64,000 nucleotides of DNA from an uncultured bacterium (GCA_963775535.1 CAVZJH010000055.1:86311-150310); one strand, 5' to 3'; positions 14,112-44,016 are shown, numbered from the stretch's first letter. A program made the numbers and translations. The notes: generated from the sequence alone by a model not told the origin.

Positions 14112-14145
14112 GCGATGACCGGAGAGGATAACACCTGAGATAGCA

Positions 14146-24872: not shown

Positions 24873-26703
24873 TTGAGGCAGCTTATGCAATCCAGGGCTA
24901 TTAAGGGCATTTGTTACGTGCTTATCGTAGCTTTTGTTTCTTCTATAGCGCCATTGTCGCTTCCGACCCCGGCGAAAGCCGATCTGATGCCCACTTACTC
25001 CGTGGGTGTCGTTGATTTCGTTAACGAATCCGGAGTCCAGGGGGATTTCCTTGCGAGGCTGGCAACCGATGCAGTGGTGGTGGAATTAGCCAAGACCGGC
25101 CGCTACGATGTGGGCGGCGCCACCCGAGCCATGATAAAGAAATCCATGGACGATCTCGGCCTGCATCCGCCGCTTACTACGATCGGTCTTGTGAGGCTTG
25201 CAGAGGACCTTCAGGTCGACGCAATGCTTCAAGGATCCATCAAGTCGGTTCAACTGGCTGGCTCCGGTCCCACCAGGCGGGCTTCTGTCACACTGGTTCT
25301 TCAGATGAGGGACCGTGCGTCTGCTGAGATCATAAACGGCGCAGTCCAGACCGGTAATTCCAGCAGCCGCGTAGGCTACACCTGCGACGATGACGAACTG
25401 ATCAGCGAAGCAATAAGCAACGCTGCTTTTTTGGCCGTCAAGACGATGGTCGATTACATTATCCCCGAAGCCACCGTTCAGATGAATTTCGGGGACAATG
25501 AGGTTATGCTCAACAAGGGCGCTCGCGATGGCCTTAAGCCCGGGATGAGAATGATCGTGCTTCGGCAGAACGAAATCATCGGCTATGTCGAGATTCGTCA
25601 GGTTAACCCGATGGACAGTATGGCGCAGGTCGTCAAGTCGATGAGAGGCATCCAGCCTGAAGATAAGGTTCGTGCGATTTTCGATATGCCGACCGTGAGC
25701 AGTACGCTGAAGTCCGAGCCTTTGCCGTCCGGCGCGCCAAAGAGCAGCGGCGGTAGGAGTAACACACTCAGCAAGATCGGGAAGGCGCTGCTCATCGGTG
25801 CTGTCGTTTTTGGCCTGGTGTCTTTGTTTAGTGGCGGTCGCGGAACTGGGAGTCCTGCAAGCATCGGCGCGTCCTCCTCGACGCCTACCACGATCACCTG
25901 GAATCCGGCCGCGTTTTCTCATGGCCTCAATGTTATCGAGTATGATGTCCTCAGGGATAATATGGCGGTGAGCGCACAACCCGTAAGGGTAATAAGCGAC
26001 CCATCCGCCATCGATGCGGGCAAGACTGACGTATATAGCTTGTATGGGACAACCACGGCGACTAACGTGGTCTACAACTCCATGACCAGTAACCCATCCA
26101 CAACTATCAGCCAGTTGAACTGGAATGTTCCCGCTGAGCCTTACGGCAATACTCATACTTACCAGGTCAGAGTGCTCTACCAGATGACCGCCGGTAACGA
26201 CCCCGACAGGTTCATCAGGCACGTCAACCAGCACCACAACCACAACCACGACTAGTACCACGTATGCGTTCTCGCCTGTCAGCAATTCCATAATTGCGAC
26301 GGCGACTCAGCCGGTCCAGAATACGGATGTCGTGCAGCCTGCATACGATCCTTCCGTGGGCCCGTCGGATCTGCTCGTCAGCGACCTCCAGGCAGGGAAT
26401 GTTAACTTCCAGTGGAAGCGCAAGGATGGCGCGGACACTTACTACGTAGTTGTCCAGCCTACCAATCCGGGCACCGGCCCGACCTGGCAAAGTCCTGTCA
26501 TTCATGAGACTGGTCCGACTGTGGCATTGTCGAGCAGCATGCTCGCCGACCTGGCCAGGGTGTTGTCAGGCACCGCATACGCGGGTTCGGTAATGAGCTG
26601 GTGGGTATACCAAAGGCACTCCACGGACACCAGTCCGGCATGGGTGCAGAGCCAGGAAAACAGGTTCACCATCGCAGCAACCCCACCGCCGCTGCCGTCC
26701 TAG
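24873..26703 (+). CDS. membrane-anchored protein with CsgG/LpoB-like N-domain and FN3-like C-terminal domain (one frame break)
   Basis: TTG start 10 nt after AGGAGG, then a signal peptide. YSVGVVDFVNESGVQGDFLARLATDAVVVELAKTGRYDV resembles CsgG/LpoB/TolB-N type domains. A TM helix is present (ALLIGAVVFGLVSLF). The frame shifts near 26195-26225 into a Thr-rich linker plus LLVSDLQAGNVNFQWKRKDGADTYYVVV (26332..26703 ORF). Confidence 0.6.
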
Positions 26704-26742: not shown

Positions 26743-29102
26743 ATGGAACGTTGCGCGTATGAGTGGAATAGGCGCCTGATATTTGCCGGCTCGTTGGTAG
26801 TGTTGGTCGGCCTGCTGCTTGCAAGCATAGCAGGGGCAGGCACCCCAAATGCGACTTATGTGCCTAATGAGTATCTGGTTCACGTGCAGCCTGGGGCGAC
26901 GCAGGCGGAAATCAATCAGTCGATCGGCCAGATGGGAGCGACACTCATCAAGCCCAGCGGGTTTCACGATACCTATCTGGTAAGGCTTGGCCGGACGTCT
27001 TCGGTTGGGTCGACTGACACGATGCGCGCAACTTCCTATCAACCTTCCAGGTGGGTCATCACGAGTGTTGAGCCGAATGCCATCTGCAAGGCGTATGCAA
27101 TCCCGAATGATCCGTATTGGAGCGATATGTGGAACATGCGCTCGATTAATATGCCGGCTGCATGGGACTTGGAAAAAGGCTCATCGAGCGTAACGGTTGC
27201 AGTGCTGGACACTGGTGTTGCGAATCACCCGGACCTTGCCAGCAGAATCACTGCGGGATACAATTTCGAGGCAAATACCACGGACGCAAGTCAGGACTTG
27301 GAAGGCCATGGCACCTGGGTGGCGGGCGCGATTGCGGCGCAGGGCAACAATGGTGAGGGTGTAGTCGGCGTCTGTTGGAACGGCGTTCAGATTATGCCGG
27401 TCAAAATCTTAGACGACACGGGCGCCGGCACGTTGGATACGGCGCTCAGCGGCCTTAGTTTTGCCGAGACAAATAACGCCAATGTCGTGAACATGAGCTG
27501 GGGCTTCCCGTCGGGCTCCGATATTCCCACATTGGAGAGCAAGCTGGCCGAACTGAACAACCTTGGAATCATCCTGGTTGCCGCCGCGGGCAACAATGGT
27601 GAAACGAGCGATCCGTCTATTGGTCCACCGGCGGTGTACCCTGAGTGCATCTGTGTCGCTTCCGTCGGCCCATTCGACGAGATTGCGCCATATTCGAGTT
27701 ACGGTCCTGGAAAGATAGTAAGCATCGCCGCCCCCGGTGGGGACGATACCGTGGGTAGCTCAGGCTGGGTTTGGAGCACTGCGGTGACTTGGAGCGGCAC
27801 CACTCCAACCTACACTTACCAGGGACCGTATACTGCTTCGGACGGGACTGCCTGGGGTTGGGAGGGAACGTCGATGGCAACCCCATTAGTAGCCGGAGCT
27901 GCAGCGCTTCTGCGCAGCTATGGCGTGGCGCCCGCTAATATTAGAAGCCGATTGATCAACAGTGCGCGCCCCCCCAGTTCAGGGGGCATGGATCCTGTTA
28001 AATATGGCGCCGGCATCCTGGACGTTCAGGCTGCGCTGATCAATTCGACCCTCAAGATTGTCACACCTGCCAAGGGCTCCACAGTGAGCGAGACCCCGCA
28101 ATTTCAGATTGCCATTCAGGGTTTGGACATTAACAGCATCAACGTGTATGTGGATTACGCAGACCTGAATGGTGATGGGATACCCGATAGCTCGACGGAG
28201 ATTCCGGTAATAAGCGCGTTGAACATAGCGTCGTATCTGAACGTTACGCAGACTGCCATCACATTCACACCCCCCATACCGACGTTGAATACGCTTGTGC
28301 CGGGGGTCCATAATATCTACGTATCCGGTTCATCCCTGGCCGATGGCACCACGGTGTCAGACTGGGGGACATTCACGGTTGCCCAGTATAAAGTGACTCA
28401 GGGTCTGCACATGTTTGCATTTCCGTATGCATTGCCGAGCCTGACTGCACAAGCGCCTTCGAGTTTCCTGGTCGATGCGAGTGGGAACAGCGCTCAGTTC
28501 GGACTCAATCAGTATCCCCGCTCGACCATGATTCGCTGGATAGCCGCGCCACGGTCGTCGACTAGTACTTCGCCTATCGGTTATGTGACTTACTCGCCGG
28601 CCAATCCGCTGGATCTGGTTTGGACGAACCCTTACTATACGCTTGATAACGGCACAACTCTTACTGTCGGTGGCGGAATATATACCAACGTTATGACCGG
28701 AATGCCGGTCACCGCGGGGCCTGCCGGCTCTGCGTTTTGGCTGATTCTTCCTGAAGACATGTGCATTACCAATGACGTTCCATTGGAATCACTGACTCAA
28801 TTTGACGGATCAAAGGGCTACCAGATTCAACTGTAGCAGTGGGTGGAATATGTTCGGCAACCCTTATGAGCACGAGATTACGTCGCAGGCTGCGCTGTTT
28901 ACCTACCAGGGGCAGACGAAGAAGTCTCCTTGACGCTGAAAACGCCGGATGGGTAGGAACAGTTATTTACGGTTACAACGGTTCCGTGTATCAGAGCGTG
29001 TCCAGCAACGACATGCTCGAACCCTACCAGGGTTATTGGATAGTCGCATTGGTTGGCGGGACTGATCAGACAACTGCTCTTACAATGACGGTTTTGCCAT
29101 AG
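26743..29102 (+). CDS. subtilisin-like serine protease (S8) with I9 propeptide and shared C-terminal module (two frame breaks in the last 300 nt)
   Basis: Catalytic D (VAVLDTGV), H (HGTWVAG) and S (GTSMATPLVAGAAALL) are present. The main ORF ends at 28836. After shifts near 28825-28835 and 28915-28930 the reading continues SSGWNMFGNPY ... SLLDAENAGWVGTVIYGYN ... LEPYQGYWIVAL (28839..29102 ORF). Confidence 0.85.
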
Positions 29103-29260: not shown

Positions 29261-31268
29261 ATGAATTATATCCGGGGCATTATCATTTCAATAGCCTGTG
29301 CGGGATTGCTGATGCTGGGAGTCTGCGCCTGGTCTCAAAATTCCGGGAACACGGCGCAGTATGTAACGTTGGAAAACCAGTACCATACAGTTCCTGCTGG
29401 GTGTTTCAGGGCAGGTTTCATCGGACCTGACAAGTGATGGTCAAAGTGATCCGGCCACCGGACGCTTTGGCGTGGTCACCGAGACGGGTGATCCGCAGGT
29501 TCCGGGAGATGATAGGCAGGCGCTGATCGTCCAGTCGCTGTATCCCTGTGGATATTGGGCGTACCTGGAAGGTGAACGTCGGAGGCACTATTTATGTTAT
29601 TGGTGATTCCGCAACCGGTTCGTGCTTAATATCCGCCGTCTGTGTGTAGTAAATCCGCCTGCTCGCGGGACTCGACCTTGGCAAGGCAGGGCCGTTTATT
29701 GATGGCACGTGGCAGATCACGGGCTCTACTGCTCCTGTAGCGACTTTCAGGGTAGCATATCAGTCTAGTGCGCGATCAGGTCAGGTTTCAACTCACGATT
29801 GTGAACTCGGCAGCCACGGCTCAGAGCATCGGAGCCGCGATGGAGTGCGCTGCTTCGGAGGAGGATAACGGTCCAGGCGGGTATCCGTTTATTCAGGGTA
29901 TAGGACAGACAGCCACGCCTGGAGCTCAGCCCCAGGTCTTTGGACAAGTGTTCAGTGGCAGCAATGTGCCCAGTATGTTTGAGTGCTATGACGACGTGCA
30001 GAGCCCGGTCGTTGTGGGGCGGACGACACTGAACCAGGCGGATTGTGTTGCGCCTGACTACGTGGCTGTCGGCGAGTGGCAGGCTTTGGCTTCTCCGGCC
30101 ACCTGGCTCAGCGGGAATGCCGCAGATCCGAATAATTATGTGCCGGACCCCGACACGCCGGTAGCTCAGCTTGCCTGGATGTCGGAGTGGCAGCAGACTG
30201 CTATGGCGTCCGGCGCCGCACGAACGCTGGTTACCTATTACGGTGTCGGGGCGGCGAGACCCGCGTGGACTGTGAGCGCGGGCGCAGGTCAGGTGCAAGA
30301 CAGTGTAGCGCTGGCTGTAGAGGGGCCACGCTCGCTCCAATACGACAGCACTACGACTGGTCAGAACGATCTCACACCCAACCCCTTCAACATAACGGCC
30401 TATGTCTATAACCTGGCGACGGACCCCGGCCCTTACAACTGACCGACGTGAATGCCTCGCTGTATCTGCCGGCTGGCTTGCAACTGACGCCGGGTCAAAC
30501 CGCGGAGCAGACCGTCGGTGATGTGCCGATCAACTCAGAGGGCACACCCGTTCAGTGGACCGTGCAGCCCACTGGCCTATATTCGGGCAATCTGGAATAT
30601 TTCATTATTGCGCGAGATTCATCGGGTTGGCAGCAGGTGGTTAGCCTTCCGATAGATGGTTCCTGCGACCAAGCAAACCGTTTTCAGATATGGATGGCAG
30701 TTGATACAAGTGCCGTTCACATTCAATAACTTCGCGATCAGTCACATATTCAATGGCCTGACACAGGGGATCGTTCGGAGCCGAATACTACAATACGGCC
30801 AGCGGCAGCTACGTGCCCGTGCAGCAGGTGCAGCCGGGGCAGGCATTCTGGATGTATGTGAATGGCGTGTCGCAGTCGACTCCGCAAGCGTTCACGCTTG
30901 CAGCCGACACGGCGATCGTGGGACAGGAAGATGGAAAGCAGTATGCGGAGCAGGACGTTAGTCTTCTGCCGGGTTGGAACCTGATAGGAAACCCGTTGTC
31001 TACCCCGTGTACTGGGGCCAGGTGCTTGTTTATAAGGACGGTGTTGAACAGTTTCGCTCAATCAAGCAGTCCAAAATAGCTGGATAAGCAAAATGCCAGT
31101 TTACCTGGAATCCGAACAGCAACTCTTACCAGTACTTGAGCGACTTCGCAGCGCAGTTGCTTCCGTGGCAGGGTTATTGGGTAGGCGCAGTCGCCTGTTA
31201 CGCTGATCTTCCGGCCGGAGGTATGGCCGGGCGGTGATGTTACGGCTAATCCAGCGGATGGCACATAA
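29261..31268 (+). pseudogene. secreted protein with Ig/CARDB-like domain and two GW...GYW modules, heavily frame-broken
   Basis: Signal peptide MNYIRGIIISIACAGLLMLGVCAWS. The fragments are 29219..29437, 29768..30442, 30448..30729 (LTDVNASLYLPAGLQL...), 30656..30961 and 30813..31079. The sense can be followed across at least six shifts and ends ...LLPWQGYWV.... The exact 3' end is uncertain (31237 or 31268). Confidence 0.55.
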
Positions 31269-31400
31269 ATGCGTTATTCACCATCTGGCAGTGAATAATG
31301 TGACTTGAGGGGGTCGATCCAAGCAATGGATTGCCCTGTATAGAGTGCAGCGCCGACAGGACGTACCGCGGTGTGCTGCCTGCAAGTAGAGTTTCCTTAT

Positions 31401-31603
31401 GAGGAATCGCGCCTGAAACCTTTCGCGACTGCGCCTGCGGCGAGTCACTGTCGGTTTCACCGCGAAGGGGATGAAAATGCCTTCGGCCATTTTCAGAGGA
31501 ATCGCGGATGAAAACCTCTCGCATTCTTCCTGCGGAAGAACGCTGTCGGTTTCACCGCGAAGGGATAAAATAGCCTTCAGCTATTTTCGGAGGAGAATAC
31601 ACT
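31401..31603 (+). repeat. ~95-nt structured 5'-leader repeat, two tandem units (C1 31401-31495, C2 31496-31590)
   Basis: Both units start GAGGAATCGCG and end in an A/U-rich hairpin. After unit 2 comes GAGGAGAATACACT then ATG. Hairpin 1 has a different stem sequence in C1 and C2 but the same TGC loop. Confidence 0.8.
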
Positions 31604-31981
31604 ATGAGATCTATTCATAAACGTTTGCCCTTGGCGGCATTGATATCGGCATTGCTTCTGTGTGCGGCGGGGACCGGCGTAATGGCAGGGTTAACCCTGA
31701 CCTGCACTCCGAACGAGGCGACAGCCAACTCCGTGTGGAATTTTACTGCCACCTGGACCGCCAACGTATGGCCGACTGGGTCTCCGGGCACCGCCGCAGG
31801 CACTACTGAAGGTCTTACATACGATGAGAATTACGTGGTCGCCTCTGGGGCGCACGCTCCGAGTGCGGTCGGACCAGAGCGCTCGACTTCCGATTCCTGG
31901 CTGATGGCTTATCCCTATTTCCTGGGATTCGGGCCTCCGTCACCTTTTACGGCTCAAGATGAGTATTATTACGGTCACTGA
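31604..31981 (+). CDS. giant surface protein, fragment 1 (signal peptide)
   Basis: MRSIHKRLPLAALISALLLCAAGTGVMAG. The sense continues in frame 1 after the stop (…LNTDKNPVGYVERPPDPLQP). Confidence 0.6.
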   Translation: MRSIHKRLPLAALISALLLCAAGTGVMAGLTLTCTPNEATANSVWNFTATWTANVWPTGSPGTAAGTTEGLTYDENYVVASGAHAPSAVGPERSTSDSWLMAYPYFLGFGPPSPFTAQDEYYYGH

Positions 31982-32282
31982 ATACCGATAAGAATCCAGT
32001 TGGCTATGTGGAGCGCCCGCCGGATCCGCTTCAGCCAATTGTCGAATTGGCCAGCAATAGTGAAGCCAGGTATGACCGTGGGCTGAACATAGTTGTAGAT
32101 GAGTCGGTAAACAACATGGATTCTACGGACGATCCTCCTGTCGTTCGCGGGGCTATTGATCCCAATACGGGTATAAACTGTCATGCAGAATATGATTGTC
32201 CCCCATATGGACGCGGTTGCCGCTGTGCCAGGCACGGGCGGCTCGCCTGGGAGTGCTGCAATCCCGGAAATAAAGCCTTTCA

Positions 32283-33086
32283 TTGTTACATCGCATGATC
32301 CGGATCTTCCTCATAGGGGTGTGGGCGGACTTCGCCCATAATATTCCGGTGGCTGCGCACCTGACGCAGCTCCAGGACTGGCCCGGAACTCAGCCGCCGG
32401 TCAACGTGATTGAGATCGACGACATGAACGCCGCGGACAGTGTAACCCAGTATTATGTCTCTTATTATTATCCGGGCGAAAATTATGTTGCCACCGCTTC
32501 CTATCCGCTGCCCGCACCGTATACTGTGTATCAGTTGAAGCCGACCAGGACCGCCAATGGCATGGTGGTCAAGATCAATGATGGCATCCTGCACCTTAAC
32601 AAGACCCCTTCAGGGGGCGCGGGCACTGCAGCCGGCGGGCTGCTGGGGGTATACGACAACCCAAACCTTGTCAGTCCGGATTATTCCGGCGTTACCAGTA
32701 AGCCCACGTCGACCCTTGCTTACGACATACCTGGAACAGCGGGGAAAGCTTACGGCGTAATACATCTGCCTGCCCTTCCGCAGAGTACCGCGATGGTGTA
32801 CATAAAAGTCAGCTCATACGCCATTGTGAATGTTAATACCGCGATTGTCCCATCGGACTCTACTTCAGCATTATTCAACCTCAGCACGGGCGTTTATGAT
32901 TCGAAGCAGGGCATCATAAAACTCACGACGCCGCTCTCAGCGCCTACGGTCAACACGACAGTCACGGATTCTACCGGCACGTATACCATCGATACGATGG
33001 GGAACAAAGTAGCAATTAAGTTCACGCCGCTCAGCAGGAATGCTATTACCGTGGGGCAACCGGTCCTTCAACAGCGACGGCGATAA
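32283..33086 (+). CDS. giant surface protein, fragment 2
   Basis: 267 aa. It contains GVYDNPNLVSPDY and GVYDSKQGIIKLTTPL motifs. The sense continues in frame 2 near 33051-33062 (…AITVG / TGPSTATAITCDPPG). Confidence 0.6.
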   Translation: MLHRMIRIFLIGVWADFAHNIPVAAHLTQLQDWPGTQPPVNVIEIDDMNAADSVTQYYVSYYYPGENYVATASYPLPAPYTVYQLKPTRTANGMVVKINDGILHLNKTPSGGAGTAAGGLLGVYDNPNLVSPDYSGVTSKPTSTLAYDIPGTAGKAYGVIHLPALPQSTAMVYIKVSSYAIVNVNTAIVPSDSTSALFNLSTGVYDSKQGIIKLTTPLSAPTVNTTVTDSTGTYTIDTMGNKVAIKFTPLSRNAITVGQPVLQQRRR

Positions 33087-33211
33087 CCTGTGATCCTCCT
33101 GGAACCGTTAACCCGGACACCACTATAGTTCCTAACGCCGAGGGTACATTCAACTTCACCAGTACAACTAATCTTCTCCCGATCGGAACGGACGCGGTTT
33201 CGATCACCTAT

Positions 33212-34618
33212 TTGTGCAATGATTCGGATGCAGGCCCCGAGGGCGCTATATGGCTGGACAATATTAATAGTGCCAGCGAAGGCCCGATACCGATGGACTA
33301 TGATAGTGGAACCCCGGCTACCGGGGCCATATACAAGGTGTCGGTCAGCGCGGGTCTGAATATGAGCAACGATAACCAGTGGCCTCTTCCTGAGTTTGGG
33401 GACAGCGGCCCGGGACAGTGGAGCAATAACCATCTTTTATGGGGGTCGGCGCTCAAGAGTGGAACAATTCCACCTCTTTGGTATGCGCCGCGGCTTATAG
33501 CCGGTGTCCTTGGCGTTGCTCAAACGATCAATAACCCACCTATCCATGCGATAGGCTATATGACCCCACAACCATATTTCTACGACACGAATTTGTCTTC
33601 TGTAATCGTCCACGACAGCCGCCCGAGAGAGCTCTTAACGAACGGCAATCTGGAGATGATCGATCACGCCGGCATTGCTTTCCACAGCCTGCCTAATGGC
33701 ACGGGAGCCGGCCTGTCTTTCTTGACGTGCTATCCGGATCCCGCTCCTAATGGGGTAGGGTGGCCACAGGGGTATGACATATATCCGGTGACAGTAGAGC
33801 CAGTCCAGGAATTGAACTCTACCGAGCCGAACGATGGCTCCAGCTCGACTGAGTTCGTATTCAGAGTCAGATACAATAATGCAGACAATCTGCCTCCACT
33901 ATCGTGGATGCATTACTGGAATGATCCGTGGTTGTTCAACGGGGGCGAGGTCGAGACCAAGGCCGATGAAAGCGGCGTTATATTATATCTCGATGAGTCG
34001 GGAACGGGCGACTATCATCCTCACTTTATGCAGCCGGAGGTTACGACCCAGACAGGGGCGGGCAACGTCTACGTTTACAGGGTTATTCCGCACAGCGCGA
34101 TCGGCATATTTAACGCCCCGCCGCCCTACCCATTGGGCGATCTATATGACGGGGGTTATGGCGTATACAACTTCGACAATACACTGTATCAATCGCTGTC
34201 AATTGGCGTATACCACTATTTCTTCGGGTGCTCCGATGACAGTATTGTTCTCGACGATGCCAAGACATATCTGTTCGATTGGCAGCCGAATGAAACGGAG
34301 TGGGGCTACACCTCCATCCAGGATAATTCAGACTGGCTGAATCACGAGAGTACCGGCACGGATCCTTCAGTTATCCGCCAGGTCGCCGGTTACAGTGCGA
34401 TCAACCGCGCTCCGCAGCGCGTGCCATCGTGCGTAGGTGATCCGAATGTTACTGGTCCATACGACTCAACAATCTACGTAGACCGGCCGGATCGTGTGCC
34501 GGGCCTCTTCGAGCAGACTTTGCAGACAAATCTCGGAACTACTTATCCCTGGAAGGCGTCACAGCATCCTGAGATTACTTGCAGCCTGGGGATGTACCAG
34601 GTACAATCCCGACACTGA
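33212..34618 (+). CDS. giant surface protein, fragment 3
   Basis: 468 aa. The ORF is open upstream of the listed TTG. It contains TEFVFRVRYNNADNLPP. It joins the next fragment near 34600 (…SLGMYQ / YNPDTDTG). Confidence 0.6.
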   Translation: MCNDSDAGPEGAIWLDNINSASEGPIPMDYDSGTPATGAIYKVSVSAGLNMSNDNQWPLPEFGDSGPGQWSNNHLLWGSALKSGTIPPLWYAPRLIAGVLGVAQTINNPPIHAIGYMTPQPYFYDTNLSSVIVHDSRPRELLTNGNLEMIDHAGIAFHSLPNGTGAGLSFLTCYPDPAPNGVGWPQGYDIYPVTVEPVQELNSTEPNDGSSSTEFVFRVRYNNADNLPPLSWMHYWNDPWLFNGGEVETKADESGVILYLDESGTGDYHPHFMQPEVTTQTGAGNVYVYRVIPHSAIGIFNAPPPYPLGDLYDGGYGVYNFDNTLYQSLSIGVYHYFFGCSDDSIVLDDAKTYLFDWQPNETEWGYTSIQDNSDWLNHESTGTDPSVIRQVAGYSAINRAPQRVPSCVGDPNVTGPYDSTIYVDRPDRVPGLFEQTLQTNLGTTYPWKASQHPEITCSLGMYQVQSRH

Positions 34619-35933
34619 CACGGGAGACTCCATGGACGATCTCTTCGTGAGGTGGGACGACCCGAAATATGGCAATGGGCGTTTCCTGGGCACAATAGAC
34701 CCGTTCTACAGAGCAGTCAATCCTGACCTGCCGGGCGCTTTTGCGTCGTCATCGCTGTCCGCTCTCGCAGAGACATGCGGTTTGACCAGCCAGACGGACA
34801 TAACATTCCAGGTGCTGTTTCAGCAAATCAATGATACTGCGCCGAATTACGTGCAGGTATACATAAACAACGCGAACGAGATGACCGGCACTGATACAGC
34901 GCATGCTTTCACAGCCTATACTATGTATCCCAGTCCTAATCAGACGCAGCCGTATGACTATAAACACGGCGTATGGTACCAGTACACCACTAAGCTTCCT
35001 ATGGGGCCGCACACGTACTATTTCCAGGCCTATGATGGAATACACGAGGCAAGGTATCCCGTCCGGCCCGACCAGTTAAACTATGGGGGCGCAGGCAGCT
35101 ATTATAATGATTGGTGGGTACCAACCAGCAGTCTCGAGACCGATCGCGGCACCGCGAGCTATGTCGACAACGACTATTGCCCTGGACCCTTTATCAACCA
35201 TCCGTGTGTGTTGAGCCAAAATACCGTGACGCCGGGCACCGGAAAGCAGGGGAATCAGTTCGAGTACAGGGTAATGTATGCCGATCCTGATGGGCAGAGA
35301 GTCTACAGCGCGAAGCTCACCATAGAGATTAACGATCGAGGTGACACACGCACGTTCGATATGATACCGGAGAGTCCGTTCGCCGACCCGACCGCGAATC
35401 ATTCACAGGATTACATGAATGGCGTCTACTACTACCTGGACACCGCTTCCATAGGCGACCTGGTCCTTGAACAGGGCACGCGGCGCTATTATATGGAGTT
35501 TACAGATGACTGGGGCAGGCAGTTCGATGTGACCGACACCGTAGCCGGTGAGGCAACCAGGCTGCCCGCCGGCGATGGCAACTGGATAGACGGACCGATC
35601 GTGTCTGCAAACCATGCGCCTACTCTCGCGAACGGAAGTGTGCAGTCACAGGACGGCACGTCAAACGCCGCCACTCTGTGGACCTATAACGTTACCTACC
35701 GTGACTTGGACAACGATCCGCCAGCCCTTATCAAGGTCTATCTTGGCTTGCTTGAACCCGACGGGAGGACCATCCTGTGGGATACCGGGCATACGATGTT
35801 ACAAGATGACCCGACCAATACGGTGTACAGCAACGGCATATCGTTTAGTTACCAAACAAGATTGGGAGCCATTGATTTAGTGGATCCCAGCGGGTACTCA
35901 ACCTCAACCGAAGCAGGACCTCTATGCCTTTGA
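34494..35933 (+). CDS. giant surface protein, fragment 4
   Basis: Three repeat-A domains (ITFQVLFQQINDTAPNYVQVYI…HTYYFQAYDG, FEYRVMYADPDG…YYMEFTDDWG, WTYNVTYRDLDNDPP…). It joins the next fragment near 35885-35915 (…DLYAFEAYDG). Confidence 0.65.
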   Translation: MCRASSSRLCRQISELLIPGRRHSILRLLAAWGCTRYNPDTDTGDSMDDLFVRWDDPKYGNGRFLGTIDPFYRAVNPDLPGAFASSSLSALAETCGLTSQTDITFQVLFQQINDTAPNYVQVYINNANEMTGTDTAHAFTAYTMYPSPNQTQPYDYKHGVWYQYTTKLPMGPHTYYFQAYDGIHEARYPVRPDQLNYGGAGSYYNDWWVPTSSLETDRGTASYVDNDYCPGPFINHPCVLSQNTVTPGTGKQGNQFEYRVMYADPDGQRVYSAKLTIEINDRGDTRTFDMIPESPFADPTANHSQDYMNGVYYYLDTASIGDLVLEQGTRRYYMEFTDDWGRQFDVTDTVAGEATRLPAGDGNWIDGPIVSANHAPTLANGSVQSQDGTSNAATLWTYNVTYRDLDNDPPALIKVYLGLLEPDGRTILWDTGHTMLQDDPTNTVYSNGISFSYQTRLGAIDLVDPSGYSTSTEAGPLCL

Positions 35934-35976
35934 AGCGTACGATGGCGCTGCCTGGGCCACCTATAATTCATCCGCG

Positions 35977-37131
35977 GTGGATGAAGACAGGTCCAACGCT
36001 GCGGGCTGCTACGTGCTTCAGAACCTTGTGCCACTGACCACGGATGAGTTTGCCATCAGGCCGATAATTGCACAAAGGGGAACAGTCAATGCGGCTGGTA
36101 ATGCGGTCACGCCCGATAGCCCGGGAGATATAATCAAGGTCTGGGGCGTCTATCAGACGGAAAACCTGGATCAGGACCCAACTTATACTACGAACTACTA
36201 TAACAGTGCTGCGGTATACAACCCGGGTGATCCTACCGTTCCTCTGATAGCGGGTGCGCCCTCGGGAGTTCTATGGATCCAGTATGAAGCTCAGTCACCG
36301 ATAGTCGGTCCGCTTCCTATTAATCTACCCGCGCCCGCCGGTGTCATTCCGGACGCGCAGTTATACCAGAACTATTCGAGCAATCCGACTCCGATATTGA
36401 TCGATGACCAGAAGAACGGCTGGATCTCATCAGACGATCCGACAGACCATGGTGTCATGGTAATGCACGCTGTGGCCGCAAATGCAAATCTGCCGACACT
36501 GACGTATGTTACTCCCGACAGTGCCGCTAACATCGCATCGATCGAAGGAATTTACGACAATCCGTTGTTGACCGGCACGAACTACTACGATCCAACTGTT
36601 CTGAATGAGCCGGCCGTTCAGACCGGCACGGTGACAGAAGGAACAGATGGCAATCTATATGCCAGCGCGAGCTGCGTATATCCCAGCGCGAATGACCCGT
36701 GGCCGCTGGGCGGGAATGATAAGATACAGGGTGTTTTCGCTGCGGCGGATCTGTCGGGCGCTAATTACTATGGAGGACAGCTCCAGTGGCAGCAGGCTCA
36801 GGCGGAGGGTACCCTCAGCTTATCCAGTGTTTGGCCGGACAATCCTTGGGACATTGCTGTGATCTCCGGTGTTTACCAGACGATGGTCGCTTCTTCGGGC
36901 GCGACGAACTATATCACGACAAATACATCCGGGTACCGAATCCGTTTGTTACGCCACCGGGCCCGACAAATGAGTTCATACCCCTTAGTACCGCTTTGGC
37001 GTCGCCGGGGCCTGCATTCATATACTACTACCCGGCAGTCGCTGCAAACCAATACTATAACCCGCCCAGCAGTGCGATTGGATCGAATGGCCAGCCGAGC
37101 GGACCGGGTGGCACGTATTGGATACCGCTGA
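35977..37131 (+). CDS. giant surface protein, fragment 5
   Basis: Four repeat-B motifs (GVYQTENL..TTNYY, GIYDNPLLTGTNYY, GVFAAADLSGANYY, GVYQTMVASSGATNY). It joins the next fragment near 36905-36925. Confidence 0.65.
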   Translation: MDEDRSNAAGCYVLQNLVPLTTDEFAIRPIIAQRGTVNAAGNAVTPDSPGDIIKVWGVYQTENLDQDPTYTTNYYNSAAVYNPGDPTVPLIAGAPSGVLWIQYEAQSPIVGPLPINLPAPAGVIPDAQLYQNYSSNPTPILIDDQKNGWISSDDPTDHGVMVMHAVAANANLPTLTYVTPDSAANIASIEGIYDNPLLTGTNYYDPTVLNEPAVQTGTVTEGTDGNLYASASCVYPSANDPWPLGGNDKIQGVFAAADLSGANYYGGQLQWQQAQAEGTLSLSSVWPDNPWDIAVISGVYQTMVASSGATNYITTNTSGYRIRLLRHRARQMSSYPLVPLWRRRGLHSYTTTRQSLQTNTITRPAVRLDRMASRADRVARIGYR

Positions 37132-39965
37132 ATGTTAAGCCCGGCGCCTCGGGCGCGCCTGCTGTTGGCAGCACGGTATACATACAGGCCCTTACGAGGA
37201 GCTTTAGCTGCGGCGATTCATCCTTGAGACTGACGACGCCTCTCCCTGAAGTGTCGATGACTGCCACGGCGGTCGCGGGCCAATACGTGCTTGCTATCCC
37301 GACCCCGGCGCTAATAGGCAGAGTAGACGGAGTATTCACTTCGTCGAGCCTGACCGGAACGAACTATTATTCGGGTGCGCAGAGCGTTCCGACTAATCCG
37401 TACACAACCGGAGACACGTTGATCCGCCTGTCAGCGCCGTTGAGTGGCACTGTCTATATAGCATACGTGCCGCTCAACCGGTCTGTTTATCTCAGTTACT
37501 CGGACATAAGCTTCACGCATCAAGCCCGCGGCACGGCCGTCGATGCGATACTACCGGATGGAATGACGCTGTCATGGGCCCAGGGAGTATCCTACTTCAT
37601 GCCGGATGGTTGGTCGGTGCCGAACGTTCACATGCGTGGCAATACGACGGACGTTACCGCCGGCACGGTTGGTATATGGCTTAATTCAGACCTGTCTCAG
37701 ACCAACTATTTCAATCCCAGGTGGACCTCCCGGTACATAGATATAACATCCGGAACGGACATTATACCCGCTACCGAGGACAATAGACCGGCTACGCTTA
37801 CCGCGGCTTCGGTCCCGCAGGGGCAGTTGCCCGCAGCAGGTTCAGGAGTGAGCATGGGAACATTGCGGCTTTCCACTCTCGCTCCAACTGGGACCAATTA
37901 CATGTACGCCCGCTATTATCAGTTCGGCGACTACCATATAGACAGGTGGAACCGGAACGTAATGTTCATTACAAATCCGGCGCTGCCTGCGGGGACCAGC
38001 CTCCAGGCGTCCTACTTCTTCGGAACAAAGATGCCGCAGTTGCTGACGGCAAACACGCCTCCAACTCTGTCGCCACCGACAACGAATGGGAAGGCTGCGG
38101 CCAACTGGGGTTTAACCGAGTTGACTTCTACGCTGACGCCTGTCCAGGGGTCACGAAGCGCGCAATACGTATACTCAGTAATCTATGAGGACCCGGACGG
38201 ACCTAACGGGCAGGCTCCGGAGTATGTGAGGGTGTATATCGACGGTGTTGCCTACGATATGACTCCCGCATACACTGGCACTCCTCCATATGGCTCGGGG
38301 GCCTTATACACATACACTCCGCCCAGCGGACTTACGGGAGGTTCTCATAAGTACCACTTTGAGGCCTCAGACGGTGCGGCAGTTGCGTGGCTTGATGATG
38401 TTCCGCCTTACTCACATCAGAGTATTGTTGGATCAGTTGTATCATCGGTGGTCGATTTTAACGGGCCGTGGGTAGATAATCCTCCGGATCTTACCGTCGG
38501 CGCCGCGTCGCCGAATCCGACCTCGGGCAGTATCGCCACGACGGAAAGTATCGATTACACGGTTACATACGACGATATGGATAATGATCCGCCTTATTTC
38601 TACAATCCGGTCACGGACATCTATGATAACCTGGACGGCAATGGCGTTCCTGATGGCCTGGATTGGTCGGGATCTCCGAGATTGTGGATTGATTCCGGCA
38701 CTACGGATCAGACCTACTCCGGTGTTACATCCGCCTTGAATGACGATCCTCTTGCGCCTGGCAAAAAGAGGATTATAGTTGCGACGACCGCAAGCGGAAG
38801 TAATCCAAACTGGACTCAGAACGAGTTCGCCGGCCAGTTGCTGCAGATCACCAACGGCACCCTGCTGAACCGGGTGTATTTGATCCAGAGCAACACTGCC
38901 AACACTCTGACACTGTCTACAGATGATTTGCTGAAGGACGGTGTAGTAGCAGGCGGGGCCAACGCCAGTGCGTTCGTCATCAATGGCCTGCTTTTGTCCA
39001 AGGTCGATCCAACCCAGCAAAACTATACACAGGGCATAGCATACAAGGTTACTGTGCCGGGATTGGCGGTAGGTTCTCACAAGTTCCACTTTACCGCCCG
39101 CAGCAGGCTAACGAAGCCACAATGGCTGCAGACTGAGATGCTCGCGCTGATACCGCCGCAGATGCCGGTTGCCTACTCGTCTCTGGCACGATTCCCTGCC
39201 AGCGGCGAATTGACCGGTCCTACGGTATCCAGCCAGCCGCCGACCGGCGTCGTGGCGCCGACTCTAACCAGCGACGCAGACCATTCGCTCTACGTTGGTC
39301 CTACATATCAGCGTGTGGCTGTAACTTCAACCACCGCAGTCGGGCCTATCGACGCGACCGCGTTTGCGCTGATCCGTGAAGTTCGCGGGGTATACAAGAA
39401 CGCGAACGACTTCGATCTGACTGCTGTTCCGGACAGCGCGACGAATGTGGCGAACGGCTATTACGATCCGGTGGCTACGACGACTCCGTTCCAGCCCGGG
39501 GATCAGACCATAAAACTGACCACAGCTATTCCCGCGTCTATAGCGGGAGCGCCGATGGTGCAGTTTGCTGTGCCTACTCTCGATACAACCACGAATATAG
39601 CATCACTTCAGAGCGTCACGCCGGATGATCCGACGGTTATCGATTCCGTGGTAGCGGTATCGCTGAACCCGGACCTCTCGGGTGTTAACTACGTTTCCTC
39701 GGCTTCTCCGCCACCGCCGACCCTGGGTGGTACTGTATCGTTTAACACCATAACGTTGACCCAACCCCTGCCTGCAGGAACTACACGGGTGTATTTGGAG
39801 TACACGCTGAAGTCGGGCATCACATATCCGCCGATGTATGTGGAATACTTCAAGATGACAAGCACGAACCCACTGCTCGCCACTGATACGGCTACGTTCA
39901 GGGCGACATACCAGGACGCCGGTGGCTACCCTCCAAGTTATCACGATGGATACAGGGTTACGTAA
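36786..39965 (+). CDS. giant surface protein, fragment 6
   Basis: 1059-aa ORF with mixed repeat-A domains (YVYSVIYEDPDG…HKYHFEASDG, IDYTVTYDDMDNDPP…HKFHFTARS) and repeat-B motifs (GVFTSSSLTGTNYY, GIWLNSDLSQTNYF, GVYKNAND…NGYY, LNPDLSGVNYV). Confidence 0.7.
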   Translation: MAAGSGGGYPQLIQCLAGQSLGHCCDLRCLPDDGRFFGRDELYHDKYIRVPNPFVTPPGPTNEFIPLSTALASPGPAFIYYYPAVAANQYYNPPSSAIGSNGQPSGPGGTYWIPLNVKPGASGAPAVGSTVYIQALTRSFSCGDSSLRLTTPLPEVSMTATAVAGQYVLAIPTPALIGRVDGVFTSSSLTGTNYYSGAQSVPTNPYTTGDTLIRLSAPLSGTVYIAYVPLNRSVYLSYSDISFTHQARGTAVDAILPDGMTLSWAQGVSYFMPDGWSVPNVHMRGNTTDVTAGTVGIWLNSDLSQTNYFNPRWTSRYIDITSGTDIIPATEDNRPATLTAASVPQGQLPAAGSGVSMGTLRLSTLAPTGTNYMYARYYQFGDYHIDRWNRNVMFITNPALPAGTSLQASYFFGTKMPQLLTANTPPTLSPPTTNGKAAANWGLTELTSTLTPVQGSRSAQYVYSVIYEDPDGPNGQAPEYVRVYIDGVAYDMTPAYTGTPPYGSGALYTYTPPSGLTGGSHKYHFEASDGAAVAWLDDVPPYSHQSIVGSVVSSVVDFNGPWVDNPPDLTVGAASPNPTSGSIATTESIDYTVTYDDMDNDPPYFYNPVTDIYDNLDGNGVPDGLDWSGSPRLWIDSGTTDQTYSGVTSALNDDPLAPGKKRIIVATTASGSNPNWTQNEFAGQLLQITNGTLLNRVYLIQSNTANTLTLSTDDLLKDGVVAGGANASAFVINGLLLSKVDPTQQNYTQGIAYKVTVPGLAVGSHKFHFTARSRLTKPQWLQTEMLALIPPQMPVAYSSLARFPASGELTGPTVSSQPPTGVVAPTLTSDADHSLYVGPTYQRVAVTSTTAVGPIDATAFALIREVRGVYKNANDFDLTAVPDSATNVANGYYDPVATTTPFQPGDQTIKLTTAIPASIAGAPMVQFAVPTLDTTTNIASLQSVTPDDPTVIDSVVAVSLNPDLSGVNYVSSASPPPPTLGGTVSFNTITLTQPLPAGTTRVYLEYTLKSGITYPPMYVEYFKMTSTNPLLATDTATFRATYQDAGGYPPSYHDGYRVT

Positions 39966-39970
39966 ACGTA

Positions 39971-42223
39971 GTGTTCGATGACATCGGAACCTCTCAGGCA
40001 ATGCATTTGTTGATTCCGCCTACGCTGGCACAGGTGCCGGATTTCACGAAGACTAACTGGTTTACCACTGATCCGATTACCCTGCCGCAGGGCACTCACA
40101 CGTACCACTTCGAGGCATCTGACGGATGGTTCGTTGTGAGATACCCATCACCACCGTCCGGTCCTATAACGGGAAGCGATTATACCGTCAGCGTGAGCTA
40201 CAAGCCCGTACTTTCGGCTGGTGGCGTCACCCCGGCGGTTGGAGCAATATCACAGGCGTTCAACTTCACCGTAACATATACGGATCAGGATGGAACGTCA
40301 GCCACGCCGCCTCACGTGTTTATGAGGATAATTCAGAACAGCAATCCGCCGGTCGAGCTTACACCTCGGGACATGACAACGACATCTACCAGCTCGAACT
40401 ATGCATCCGGTGTTGTATATCAATATACGTCCGATCCAACAAAGGACATATTCACACCAGGTACATATAATGTGATCTTCGAAGCGACTGATGAACTCGG
40501 TGAAGCAGCCGATCCATACCCGGGAGCTACGGATCCGCCGGTTAAGTTCACCTGCGGAAATTATACGAGTATCCCGGTTCTGACAAATCCTCAGGTTCTG
40601 GCAACTGGGACCAATCTACCTGAGGGCGATCTGAACTCGACGTTCACTTATCAAGTTACGTATTCGGACAGCGACGATCTTCCGCCGGTTTCCAACGGAC
40701 AGAAAGATGTCCTCAACGTGAGCATCTACAACCTGGATCTACCGGCTGCCCAGCAGTTGATACAGACACTTCCGATGACCAGGGTTACTACGGGCGCGGT
40801 GGACTACACGGCGGGAGTCGCTTACCATACGACTTCGACAATATCAGGTAAATCACTGCAGCCGGGACGGCACTCGTTTGTGATAACTGCATCCAACGGC
40901 ATTAATGCCGCGGTTCCGGTTACCGGAAGTGGACCAACACTGCTGCTTCCGTATTTCGACAACGTCAAATTGATTTCTGCTGACCTGACCAACGCAGGTG
41001 ACCTCGTTAAGGATCCTGCCGCAGCCACATCAGTGACAAATTCACTTGTAGGGGACAATGTGTTGCTCATCGGCAATCTAGAGTTCCCGGTGGGTACTAC
41101 GACAGCTCCGCCCTCGGAGGTCACGAACATTGTCGTTCAGGTGACAAAGCCGGATGGAACTTCTCTAAGTCTATCGGCTACGGGACAGTTGGCTACCGGA
41201 AGGACTTACTACCTGAATGTTAGTTACCCCACCGGCACCGACCCGGCATTGCAAACAGGCACGAGCTTGACTCTGTCTGCCAGCGGTACCTGGCAATTCG
41301 GAGTGTCGTGGGCAGGCGGATCCGGATGGGATAGCGCAACATTGAATCCCAATCTGAGCGCATCGGTCGGCGGTCCGATGCGCACGATGGCTGTTGCAGA
41401 TCCGACGAACCCTGCGACCAGCATTCCTGTTGTCGATATGGTTGCGCCTCCGAAGATCATGGGCTCGACCGACATAGGTCAGGTCTTCGGGTCGGATAAG
41501 GCAGTTAATATGCAGATTGTAAAGTGGGATCCGGCATCGAGCAGCTATATTCGCTACGGAAATGGTCCGTTCCCGGCGTGCAGCCCGGGAGATGCATTCT
41601 GGATAAAGCCGAACTCGACGTACGTCGCGACATACCCCGCGGTGGCAATCACGACCGACGAGATAAATGATGGGCTGTTGGCATCCGCCGATCCGCAGTT
41701 CCCTCTAGATGTTACGAAGGACTACAGGCTGATAAATGTCTTTGTCAAGGACTATACGAAGGATTCCACGGGAAAAGTCCTGCCGTGCACCATATCGTTG
41801 ACGACTGGCTGGAACCAGTTCGGTGATATCTTCTTCAATTGGAAGAAGGACGCCACGGGGGCCGACCTCATCCCAAAAGTGGATGTTGGAATCCCAATCA
41901 GCGAACTGAGTGTTGTCTACTTGAATCAGACCAAATCATTCGCTGATGCCGTGACTGCTAACTGGATACGCGGGTATGCGTGGCGCTACGATGCCAGCCA
42001 GAACAAGTACGTGGAAGTGAGCCCTACGGACGCTGGAGCAGAAACAGTGCTGTATGCTTGGAGCGGTTACTGGATAAGAGCATTCGTTAATTGTCAACTG
42101 ATCATTGATCCGAACACCACGTATAATGGTACAATGTCGGTCAAGGGTCTGGCTAGTGCGGTGAAGCCTGCGTCGGCAACATCTAATAGCAATATTGATT
42201 TGCCGCCTGCGGTTCCAAACTAG
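39971..42223 (+). CDS. giant surface protein, fragment 7 (C-terminal, carries the shared GW...GYW module)
   Basis: The frame shift near 39948 splits one repeat-A domain (ATFRATYQDAGGYPPSYHDG / IQGYVNVVFDDIGTSQAMHL…HTYHFEASDG). The C-terminus is TGWNQFGD … SFADAVTANWIRGYAWRYD … AWSGYWIRAF. Confidence 0.7.
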   Translation: MFDDIGTSQAMHLLIPPTLAQVPDFTKTNWFTTDPITLPQGTHTYHFEASDGWFVVRYPSPPSGPITGSDYTVSVSYKPVLSAGGVTPAVGAISQAFNFTVTYTDQDGTSATPPHVFMRIIQNSNPPVELTPRDMTTTSTSSNYASGVVYQYTSDPTKDIFTPGTYNVIFEATDELGEAADPYPGATDPPVKFTCGNYTSIPVLTNPQVLATGTNLPEGDLNSTFTYQVTYSDSDDLPPVSNGQKDVLNVSIYNLDLPAAQQLIQTLPMTRVTTGAVDYTAGVAYHTTSTISGKSLQPGRHSFVITASNGINAAVPVTGSGPTLLLPYFDNVKLISADLTNAGDLVKDPAAATSVTNSLVGDNVLLIGNLEFPVGTTTAPPSEVTNIVVQVTKPDGTSLSLSATGQLATGRTYYLNVSYPTGTDPALQTGTSLTLSASGTWQFGVSWAGGSGWDSATLNPNLSASVGGPMRTMAVADPTNPATSIPVVDMVAPPKIMGSTDIGQVFGSDKAVNMQIVKWDPASSSYIRYGNGPFPACSPGDAFWIKPNSTYVATYPAVAITTDEINDGLLASADPQFPLDVTKDYRLINVFVKDYTKDSTGKVLPCTISLTTGWNQFGDIFFNWKKDATGADLIPKVDVGIPISELSVVYLNQTKSFADAVTANWIRGYAWRYDASQNKYVEVSPTDAGAETVLYAWSGYWIRAFVNCQLIIDPNTTYNGTMSVKGLASAVKPASATSNSNIDLPPAVPN

Positions 42224-42240
42224 TGTTGAACGCAGAACCA

Positions 42241-42272
42241 GGCGCGGCTCGGGAATGGCCCCGAGCCGCGCC
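42241..42272 (+). terminator. strong GC-rich hairpin after the giant gene
   Basis: GGCGCGGCTCGGG-AATGG-CCCCGAGCCGCGCC has a 12-13-bp stem and starts 18 nt after the stop. No U-tract follows. Confidence 0.5.
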
Positions 42273-42314
42273 AAATATCACCAGTGTTGTAATGAACTTT
42301 GTGGAGGATTCACG

Positions 42315-43047
42315 ATGAATGGAAGAGGCTGCCCTTGGAAATGGCTTGCCTTATGTGTTGTGATTAGTATTGTCGCAGTGGGTACGGCGAATGCCGGACT
42401 CTTCGGACTGGGAAAGGGCAAGAAGCATGCAGGAAAGGCATCTCGATATTCGTTAGTGGTGTTTCCTTTCGACAATGGCACTGATACAACTGTGCCTGAC
42501 TCATACGGGGGCTATGTCGCGTCCGATGTGCGCACTATGCTGACCGGGAAATCAGAGTATATTCCATATCTTTATACGGATCGGCTGCCATCCGTTCAGA
42601 GGGCCAAGGAAGAGCAGTCCCTGAAACCGTCGGATGTTAATCCACCGTTTGCCGATGATAAGTTGAAGCCGCTCAAGATTGCGCAGGTCATTGGCAGCGA
42701 TTACTACCTTGTAGGATCGATAGAGGAGATAACCGTCGATACCGCCAAGAAAGTTGCGACGGTGACGCTGAAAGCAGATGTGTTCGATACAAGGAACGGA
42801 AGGCTGGTTCGGACTTGTCTTGTTTCCGGTCGCACGCCGGAGACGGTGAAAACGTCCGAAAGCGGAGGATCTCAGAGACATTGCGAAAGGCGCCGCTGTT
42901 ACCAGACTCATAGCGGAAATAACAGCAGATGAGTCGTCTTCGAGTGCAGACCCTGCAGTGAAGCCTGAAGATACAGCGGCAGCGGGTCAGACCCAGACCC
43001 CGGCTCCCGACAAGCCGCTTGCAAAAGCCGCCGCGCCGCAGAAATAG
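42315..43047 (+). CDS. secreted CsgG/LpoB-like-domain protein (one frame break near 42860)
   Basis: ATG at 42315, 6 nt after GGAGGA, then a signal peptide. YSLVVFPFDNGTDTT…GGYVASDVRTMLTG… resembles the N-domain of the 24873 gene product. After the shift it reads …EDLRDIAKGAAVTRLIAEI… to the stop at 43045-43047. Confidence 0.55.
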
Positions 43048-43072
43048 CTTCGGGTCCGATTATAGAGTAAGC

Positions 43073-43101
43073 AAAGGGACAGCCTAACAGACTGTCCCTT
43101 T
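43073..43101. terminator. bidirectional terminator-like hairpin between convergent genes
   Basis: AAAGGGACAG-CCTAACAGA-CTGTCCCTTT, with flanking A and T runs on either strand. Confidence 0.6.
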
Positions 43102-43134
43102 ATTATTCATCCGTCGTAAGCAATCGCCCGAGAA

Positions 43135-43875: not shown

Positions 43876-44016
43876 ATATCCCTCTCATGTATCACATTGG
43901 GCGATCCGCGATTATTAGAATACCCAGTCGCCGTTCATTACTTAGCCTGGCCCGCTCCCAAGTCCTTCCGACATTCCTCCGCGATGCAATAATGTCGGCC
44001 TATGGCATGCATTTGA

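Follow-up and report, generated by a model that had tools for sequence, protein, structure and literature searches.

An uncultured soil Armatimonadota bacterium encodes a giant all-beta protein of two intermixed repeat families in a frame-broken 10.6-kb region

A stretch of 64,000 nucleotides from an uncultured bacterium (GCA_963775535.1, CAVZJH010000055.1:86311-150310), referred to here as the window, carries on its plus strand a chain of open segments (31604-42223) that gives one product of 3,539 residues after bridging eight shifts of one or two bases. This region is a single gene, and its source is an uncultured Armatimonadota bacterium from soil. Its product is essentially all-beta and is comprised of nine Ig-like domains (repeat A), nine units of a second repeat (repeat B), several unique beta regions and a C-terminal beta module. 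The evidence strongly supports that the eight breaks are indel errors of a noisy, probably long-read, assembly and that the gene is intact in the cell. Taking the evidence as a whole, we place at roughly three in four the probability that this intact gene encodes a secreted string of beta domains at the cell surface and is part of a conserved envelope cluster. The chorismate synthase encoded in the window is 80-84% identical to those in Armatimonadota metagenome-assembled genomes (MAGs), and gene fragments are present in soil-metagenome runs.

Reconstruction of the gene, its relatives and its neighbourhood

The gene was reconstructed by a dynamic programme with codon usage trained on the solid genes of the window, in which stops were forbidden and +1/-1 steps penalised. 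A single path leads from the ATG at 31604 to the stop codon (42221-42223). It has eight shifts (31976, 32176, 32306, 33051, 34598, 35907, 36934 and 39951) and no in-frame stop or large deletion over its 3,539 codons. The bridged product has a mass of 379 kDa and a pI of 4.3, is rich in T, P, A, G and S and contains 0.5% Cys. The initial annotation of this DNA had noted a plus-strand chain of eight open reading frames (ORFs). The same eight segments have been recovered, and the six junctions it had located all lie within 25 nt of shifts in the path. Its eight pieces are really nine: the shifts at 32176 and 32306 bracket a short stretch in frame 1, and the former was concealed within the second ORF.

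31604..42223, plus strand: giant-protein gene, 3,539 residues, eight shifts (codon-usage path, end-to-end alignment with the homologue P0011, intact homologues)
31604..31687, plus strand: signal-peptide-like N-terminus MRSIHKRLPLAALISALLLCAAGTGVMA (reading of the sequence; homologues begin alike)
31574-31978, 31963-32295, 32274-33083 and 33020-34615, plus strand: stop-free segments 1 to 4, in alternating frames, overlapping or abutting
34482-35930, 35881-37128, 36765-39962 and 39887-42220, plus strand: stop-free segments 5 to 8, continuing the same chain

The N-terminal signal peptide proposed earlier is seen by eye as MRSIHKR followed by a hydrophobic core and VMA/G, and the homologues have the same layout. 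A lipobox, or lipoprotein, reading of it was inconsistent across the homologues and has been dropped.

The proposal that the chain is one giant protein with two intermixed repeat families is borne out by an intact homologue. Chain residues 1-3539 align with residues 30-3490 of P0011 (3,492 residues) in one BLASTP segment at 41% identity, and the chain is collinear also with P0008, P0006, P0007, P0010 and P0012. An exhaustive HMMER search with a 1,009-residue piece has identified 199 relatives, 69 of them at E<1e-30 and many of 2,700-4,900 residues; an earlier word-indexed search had given three distant matches only (P0001-P0003). Uninterrupted ORFs encode P0007 (4,306 residues) and P0155 (4,097 residues) on contigs of 181 kb and 352 kb, and the contig of P0007 has a SPAdes-style name and 27x coverage.

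The giants of Armatimonadota (P0005-P0008 and P0010-P0012, P0006 being MDH7602235.1, recorded as partial) are 41-47% identical to the window protein and collinear with it all the way from signal peptide to (L/I)DxPPxxP tail, and they carry the same A, B and C-terminal modules. They differ in the numbers of A and B units and in their N-terminal extensions, which gives them lengths of 2,700 to 4,900 residues. The only database name for these relatives is 'hypothetical protein [Armatimonadota bacterium]', and no paper on this giant family was found in a literature search. The family is unnamed, and repeats A, B and the module are without curated models.

The order of genes around the giant is conserved. 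In two related loci (L082 and L083) it is rpsA, coaE, u600, S8 subtilase, u650, giant and u250. This order recurs in the window between 22096 and 42932, and a further locus (L005) agrees as far as it extends. The five-gene neighbourhood following rpsA-coaE has been confirmed for P0007 and for P0155, a P0006 relative. All five cluster proteins have signal-peptide-like N-termini. The neighbours of the giant in the window are the following.

24873..26700, plus strand: u600, secreted; its N-terminal domain is LpoB-like (PF13036 at E=7.8e-5, over the cut-off); in two frames
26743..29102, plus strand: S8 subtilase with the C-terminal module (homology, module alignment); in three frames
29427..31268, plus strand: u650, secreted, with the C-terminal module (homology, module alignment); at least four frame breaks
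42195..42932, plus strand: u250, small, secreted and weakly LpoB-like (gene order; PF13036 at E of about 0.015 in two genomes)

The homology of u250 covers 42342-42866 only, and its true start is probably downstream of 42195. The aroC neighbourhood, considered as a conserved context, has been rejected: aroC-centred loci from 80 genomes contain no giant homologue within 10 kb, and the conserved side is that of rpsA. At 54854-56785 the window encodes a 643-residue protein that is 53% identical to the Big_1/Invasin_D3 gene directly following u250 in L082. Its position 12 kb from the cluster in the window indicates that the cluster edge is rearranged.

Repeats A and B and the C-terminal module

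A comparison of the chain with itself by BLASTP gave no off-diagonal matches because the repeats are too divergent, and hidden Markov models (HMMs) were therefore needed. At least nine copies of each repeat had been counted from the sequence. An HMM built only from the nine repeats of an unrelated protein, P0001, gives E=9.6e-53 on the chain, compared with E=0.17 for the best-scoring of 50 shuffles. Its copies start at chain residues 733, 1061, 1198, 1336, 2176, 2292-2500, 2760, 2867 and 2995, with a weak extra one at 527-595, so that nine copies of repeat A and one weak copy are recovered. An HMM of repeat B, built from units of 18 homologues with the chain left out, matches at E=1.3e-84 (shuffles at E>=0.05) and likewise gives nine units.

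33797..34243, plus strand: A1, chain 732-880, with insertions (HMM)
34761..35057, plus strand: A2, chain 1053-1151 (HMM)
35196..35531, plus strand: A3, chain 1198-1309 (HMM)
35610..35979, plus strand: A4, chain 1336-1458, crosses shift 6 (HMM)
38115..38405, plus strand: A5, chain 2171-2267, modelled beta sandwich (HMM; profile match to 6FHJ residues 814-900)
38505..39104, plus strand: A6, chain 2301-2500, with an insert of about 110 residues (outside seed, iE=4.8e-10; matches of the P0001 HMM are split)
39882..40144, plus strand: A7, chain 2760-2847, crosses shift 8 (HMM)
40199..40510, plus strand: A8, chain 2866-2969 (HMM; homology to the tandem repeats of P0001-P0003)
40586..40918, plus strand: A9, chain 2995-3105 (HMM; homology to the tandem repeats of P0001-P0003)
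32628..32819, plus strand: B1, chain 342-405 (B HMM, iE 2.5e-6)
36076..36330, plus strand: B2, chain 1491-1575 (B HMM, iE 3.6e-18)
36475..36627, plus strand: B3, chain 1624-1674 (B HMM)
36682..36798, plus strand: B4, chain 1693-1731 (B HMM)
36805..37046, plus strand: B5, chain 1734-1814, crosses shift 7 (B HMM)
37287..37505, plus strand: B6, chain 1895-1967 (B HMM; modelled beta strands)
37623..37934, plus strand: B7, chain 2007-2110, with an insert of low confidence (B HMM; model)
39309..39545, plus strand: B8, chain 2569-2647 (B HMM)
39588..39854, plus strand: B9, chain 2662-2750 (B HMM)

The repeat domain that had been described as split across two ORFs at about 39948 is A7, which crosses the junction at 39951. 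The insert of A6 (about 38622-39014, chain about 2340-2470) reads NWTQNEFAGQLLQITNG...VYLIQSNTANTLTLSTDDL...FVINGLL and recurs in homologues; a relative of it in P0062 reads NWTAEQFKG...IDNNTANQITLTV. Repeat B has units of about 65-70 residues with the consensus vTPddpddIgsVlGVYlnadLtGtNYYdp...GdgtIrLttPLPaGtttVYIrYe.

An AlphaFold2 model of the segment B6-B7-A5, made with 24 aligned sequences, has a mean pLDDT of 72 and beta strands throughout, and its A domain is confident (pLDDT 86-93). The top Foldseek match for A is PDB entry 6FHJ, the Paenibacillus xanthanase PspXan9 (E=6e-5, probability 1.0), the others being generic Ig-like (E-set) sandwiches, and the alignment profile of B6-B7-A5 matches residues 814-900 of the same entry at E=4.1e-18. 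Repeat A is thus predicted by the model to be an Ig-like, or E-set, beta sandwich, an assignment at the level of the fold only. Neither repeat could be named by the initial annotation. This no longer holds for A, which matches the beta module of 6FHJ, and holds for B, for which no recognisable relatives were found. Against viral structures Foldseek gave nothing at E<0.01.

Scans of all segments, the repeat consensuses and the C-terminal module with Pfam and NCBIfam gave no matches. The initial annotation had allowed that both repeats might prove to be ordinary PKD, Big or cadherin domains, and neither maps to these models. The PKD models (PF00801 and PF18911) gave nothing at E<0.01 on the segments and nothing at E<10 on the A and B consensuses. 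No match was obtained with the cadherin HMMs or with Big_1 to Big_13, the best being Big_3_5 on the B consensus (E=0.07, 14 bits against a cut-off of 35.5).

The module of PspXan9 (6FHJ/6FHN, residues about 805-905) shares with repeat A the motifs PTL..G.V.P..G...T.FTY.V.Y.D...QAP..V.V.IDG....M.......Y..G..Y.Y...L..G.H.Y.F...D. It occurs as a single copy in a glycoside hydrolase, whereas repeat A recurs in a giant surface protein. The module directly precedes the xanthan-binding CBM84; the published 'PspCBM84' primer begins inside the last strands of the module, and the boundary between the two was deduced from this cloning primer. A later paper on PspXan9 draws three beta modules after the GH9 domain.

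Another group of proteins with repeat A is formed by P0001-P0003 (about 1,000-1,150 residues), which have tandem head-to-tail repeats of about 107 residues, nine of them in P0001, that are 29-33% identical to A. Unlike those of the giant, these repeats are regularly tandem and without B units, and after them come a classical PKD domain and, at the C-terminus, a transmembrane anchor. The PKD matches in P0001 and P0003 fall in this separate C-terminal domain, outside repeat A. P0001-P0003 are probably archaeal, as judged by a neighbouring gene with HVO_0163-type domains.

The C-terminal end of the giant consists of the following two parts.

41510..42130, plus strand: C-terminal all-beta module; its last 115 or so residues (GWNQFG...WSGYWI...C.LII, 41783-42130) are common to the subtilase and u650
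42131..42220, plus strand: low-complexity tail ending in the conserved (L/I)DxPPxxP (homologue C-termini)

Over their last 100-150 residues the three proteins (giant, subtilase and u650) are homologous (BLASTP E of 1e-9 to 1e-5), in agreement with the shared C-terminal module described earlier. The model of the C-terminal 450 residues (pLDDT 84, pTM 0.73) is a string of beta sandwiches. A pattern scan for the module over 185,579 species genomes has identified 76 loci, all labelled Armatimonadota or phylum-unclassified by title; they include Chthonomonadales, Capsulimonadaceae and Fervidibacter with its relatives, and other established phyla account for 0 of the 76. A word-indexed profile search for the module gave short fragments only. 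Its carriers are S8 subtilases, S53 sedolisin-like proteases, a protein with a glucodextranase B domain (Glucodextran_B) and unannotated proteins. In some carriers the module is close to the C-terminus with a proline-rich tail after it; in others it stands ahead of about 250 residues ending in FlgD_ig. The S53-type carriers of Capsulimonadaceae also end in proline-rich tails. Since non-terminal copies exist, a binding or structural domain fits the module better than a terminal sorting signal. The module is taken to be an extracellular domain seen only in Armatimonadota, and not strictly a terminal tag.

These relationships raise the question of whether the intact gene encodes mainly a polysaccharide-binding or substrate-capture scaffold that tethers the cell and secreted hydrolases to polymers. 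The sole solved relative of A adjoins the xanthan-binding CBM84, and the weaker fold matches of A are N-terminal domains of amylase-family enzymes and a CBM21, besides sulfite oxidase and the BIg domains of SiiE. The module is found on secreted proteases and on the protein with the glucodextranase B domain, and a Wzt carbohydrate-binding domain is among the weak fold matches of the C-terminal region. However, the PspXan9 literature that was found gives no function, sugar binding included, for the 6FHJ module, and neither a catalytic nor a curated carbohydrate-binding family was detected in the giant with Pfam and NCBIfam. The constant position after rpsA-coaE, in company with a protease and LpoB-like proteins, is more suggestive of a core envelope structure, and we consider the scaffold rather unlikely, though a serious alternative.

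The frame breaks and other features of the window

The eight breaks were compared with a second assembly of the same locus from a close relative (ENA ERZ25039519, contig_36736), referred to as L081, and with Illumina-type unitigs of 151 nt.

31971..31978, plus strand: shift 1, from window frame 1 to 0; L081 has one base different, yet is broken too
32173..32180, plus strand: shift 2, window two bases short; the Illumina unitig adds C and G, L081 has +2 (also path)
32302..32310, plus strand: shift 3, window one base over; the base is absent in the Illumina unitig and L081
33051..33067, plus strand: shift 4, window one base short; L081 has an additional C at 33067 (also path)
34598..34602, plus strand: shift 5, CCAGGTACAA, one base over; L081 is identical here, and a homologue is continuous (SLSMYQYDPD)
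35892..35911, plus strand: shift 6, surplus G in the window; the G is absent from L081
36934..36937, plus strand: shift 7, window one base short; L081 has an additional T, and the 98%-identical P0009 is continuous
39951..39953, plus strand: shift 8, window one base short, within repeat A7; L081 has an additional G

Six of the eight shifts are mended in L081 by an indel of the sign required, at most a few bases away (+2 at 32178, -1 at 32303, +1 at 33067, -1 at 35892, +1 at 36937 and +1 at 39951). L081 in turn has about thirty more single-base indels at places where the window is open, and its gene calls P0009 and P0004, near-identical proteins, are continuous over the window junctions and broken elsewhere. 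Relative to the window, the unitigs have a C inserted after 32173, a G inserted after 32176 and one base missing at 32302, exactly what the path needs at shifts 2 and 3. Accurate reads that keep the frame breaks had been named in the initial annotation as evidence that would tell against a single gene; the junction-covering reads remove the break instead. Short-read contigs spanning junctions outside 32173-32302 were not found, and a run search for the whole gene was also empty.

The coding sequence is under constraint in the bridged frame. Between the window and L081 the ratio of nonsynonymous to synonymous substitution rates (dN/dS) is 0.35 in this frame against 0.97 and 1.49 in the two wrong frames, and it remains at about 0.30-0.38 beyond the last shift (0.30 over the last 2.2 kb). 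Neighbouring genes are split as well, namely u600, the subtilase and u650 of the cluster and a 908-residue protein at 14125-16843, which lies in three frames with 59-71% identity to an intact relative. As the neighbours are equally broken, the 0.75 shifts per kb of the giant gene represent the local norm. No breaks occur in aroA, aroC and the Big_1/Invasin_D3 gene (45-57 kb), so that indel errors are dense from about 14 to 42 kb and absent in the tested parts beyond.

Over 26901-45227, 11 of the 134 indels between the window and L081 are near GTAC (expected 4.2 +/- 1.9) and seven near GGTAC (expected 1.6 +/- 1.3). GGTAC occurs at four of the eight shifts of the giant gene, and the window has a gene for a D12-class adenine methyltransferase (49797-50993). 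These observations hint at basecalling errors tied to the motif, which would at best be a partial cause. Methylation errors at GTAC/GGTAC as the full cause have been rejected, several shift sites in neighbouring genes being without a nearby GTAC. The divergence from L081 is a mosaic: the 5' half (31604-36900) is about 99.7% identical and the last 2.2 kb have a dS of about 0.2, which suggests recombination or strain-variable 3' alleles of a surface protein.

A number of points weigh against an intact gene for a secreted surface string. The site 31971-31976 is broken in both assemblies, though in different ways, and the extra base at 34598 (CCAGGTACAA) is common to both with no short reads across it. 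Recombination from intact alleles could account for part of the low dN/dS seen in the diverged 3' third. Foldseek found no specific relatives of the B units in the PDB or among viral models, and for the C-terminal model it returned from the PDB generic Ig/FN3 strings only. The module is not always terminal, some 250 residues including FlgD_ig coming after it in many Armatimonadota proteins. The surface location, the binding of Ca2+, the anchoring by the module and the processing by the subtilase are read from the architecture and the neighbourhood.

With regard to the two shared sites, the homologues are continuous in one frame at both 31976 and 34598. The window and L081 are 99.7% identical over 31604-36900, so that one population has been sampled and a break common to both is not independent evidence either way. 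At 34598 a systematic error shared by both assemblies is as likely as a common mutation.

These sites, together with the sheer number of eight breaks in 10.6 kb and the lack of accurate reads across either site, are what a real pseudogene would have in its favour, in which genuine frameshifts have accumulated and which is no longer translated as one protein. We regard this as very unlikely, as the breaks are equally dense in conserved neighbours including the 71%-identical 908-residue protein, six of them are absent from the sister assembly or the Illumina unitigs while the sister is broken elsewhere, and past all breaks dN/dS stays at 0.30-0.38 in a path whose 3,539 codons hold no stop or large deletion. 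That shifts 31976 and/or 34598 are programmed, by ribosomal frameshifting or transcriptional slippage regulating the amount of full-length protein, is extremely improbable: both sites persist in both assemblies, but GGTCACTGAATACC and CCAGGTACAATCC have no slippery heptamer or homopolymer run, the homologues stay in one frame through both places, a common systematic error is simpler for assemblies of the same population over this half, and GTAC/GGTAC is over-represented at indel sites.

Upstream of the gene lies a leader element.

31401..31600, plus strand: 5' leader, two tandem copies of about 95 nt, each closing with a hairpin that stands directly ahead of a GGAG Shine-Dalgarno sequence

The copies have in common an outer stem (UCGCGG...CCGCGA), an inner hairpin in which two pairs are compensatory, and the 3' hairpin before GGAG. 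A third copy (9175-9278) is upstream of an unrelated ORF (9244-9744) followed by an MBL-fold hydrolase, and L081 has its copies at 4545-4745. Short contigs of soil metagenomes cover the element about 17x as against 0-3x for the giant gene. Rfam gave no match to the leader even at E<=10. A scan of 596 Gb of contigs with a 17-mer of the leader core gave at least 106 stretches against about 70 expected by chance, those listed being chance matches in unrelated phyla. Tentatively, the element could function as a cis-regulatory leader, or else represent a small mobile repeat. The only Rfam match of the window at the gathering threshold is a tRNA gene of 83 nt with a long variable arm (12771-12853, minus strand).

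Proposed role of the giant protein and its cluster

Giant uncharacterised surface proteins are common in MAGs. To our knowledge almost nothing is known of the cell envelope in Armatimonadota, a widespread and mostly uncultured phylum of soils and sediments. For the product of the intact gene a function as surface fibre, adhesin or S-layer/envelope-layer protein is a reasonable one. It would be exported by Sec and form an extended string of beta sandwiches on the cell surface as such a fibre, adhesin or envelope layer. DxDxDG loops are known as calcium sites. The YxDxDG and DxDxDxP loops of the A domains resemble this type and could permit a stiffening by Ca2+ as in giant adhesins.

The adhesins SiiE, LapA and MpIBP/MpAFP are likewise very large, acidic, all-beta proteins with many Ig-like sandwiches and with D-rich loops suggesting Ca2+ stiffening. 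They follow type I secretion and have a C-terminal RTX region, no N-terminal signal peptide and near-identical tandem repeats. The giant differs from them in its Sec-type N-terminus and its divergent, intermixed repeats, in having no RTX or Big match in Pfam and in having no ABC/MFP/TolC neighbours. No HemolysinCabind match was obtained, and the neighbours are a subtilase and LpoB-like proteins. Other known modes of export and anchoring were also considered. The giant and its neighbours gave no Pfam or NCBIfam matches for TPS or TpsB of two-partner secretion. Type IX sorting domains of Pfam and NCBIfam were not matched in C-terminal stretches of 230-756 residues, and the giant does not end in FlgD_ig. 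There is no match to SLH, and with respect to LPXTG the C-terminus (...NSNIDLPPAVPN) has no hydrophobic segment.

The common C-terminal module may bring its three carriers in the cluster (giant, subtilase and u650) to a single envelope site or partner, and the two LpoB-like proteins may serve as envelope-side assembly factors. The co-encoded subtilase could mature or trim the giant, as SphB1 does with FhaB of Bordetella, a surface protein of about 3,600 residues whose maturation depends on this dedicated subtilisin-like protease. FhaB is a beta helix with a TPS domain exported via TpsB, and SphB1 is an autotransporter encoded elsewhere. The likeness is an analogy of logic only, the domains of FhaB being not detected in the giant.

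The constant place beside housekeeping genes in every cluster genome examined argues for a core envelope structure over an accessory adhesin. A more specific proposal, which we put forward as tentative and consider possible rather than probable, is that the cluster is a hitherto undescribed, Armatimonadota-specific system of envelope assembly, in which a fibre or sheath of about 380 kDa is matured by the subtilase and the three large components are targeted or anchored through the phylum-specific beta module.

The case also carries a lesson for annotation, since a noisy long-read assembly presents one gene as eight 'hypothetical proteins', which a sister assembly and intact homologues reverse. 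Three domain families without a Pfam model (A, B and the C-terminal module) become available for domain libraries. The cluster and the module seen only in Armatimonadota are the parts worth following and provide a concrete candidate for a major surface structure of this phylum. If the proposal of an envelope assembly system is true, repeats A and B would be two new extracellular domain families, and the module would be the Armatimonadota counterpart of SLH or of the C-terminal domains of the type IX secretion system.

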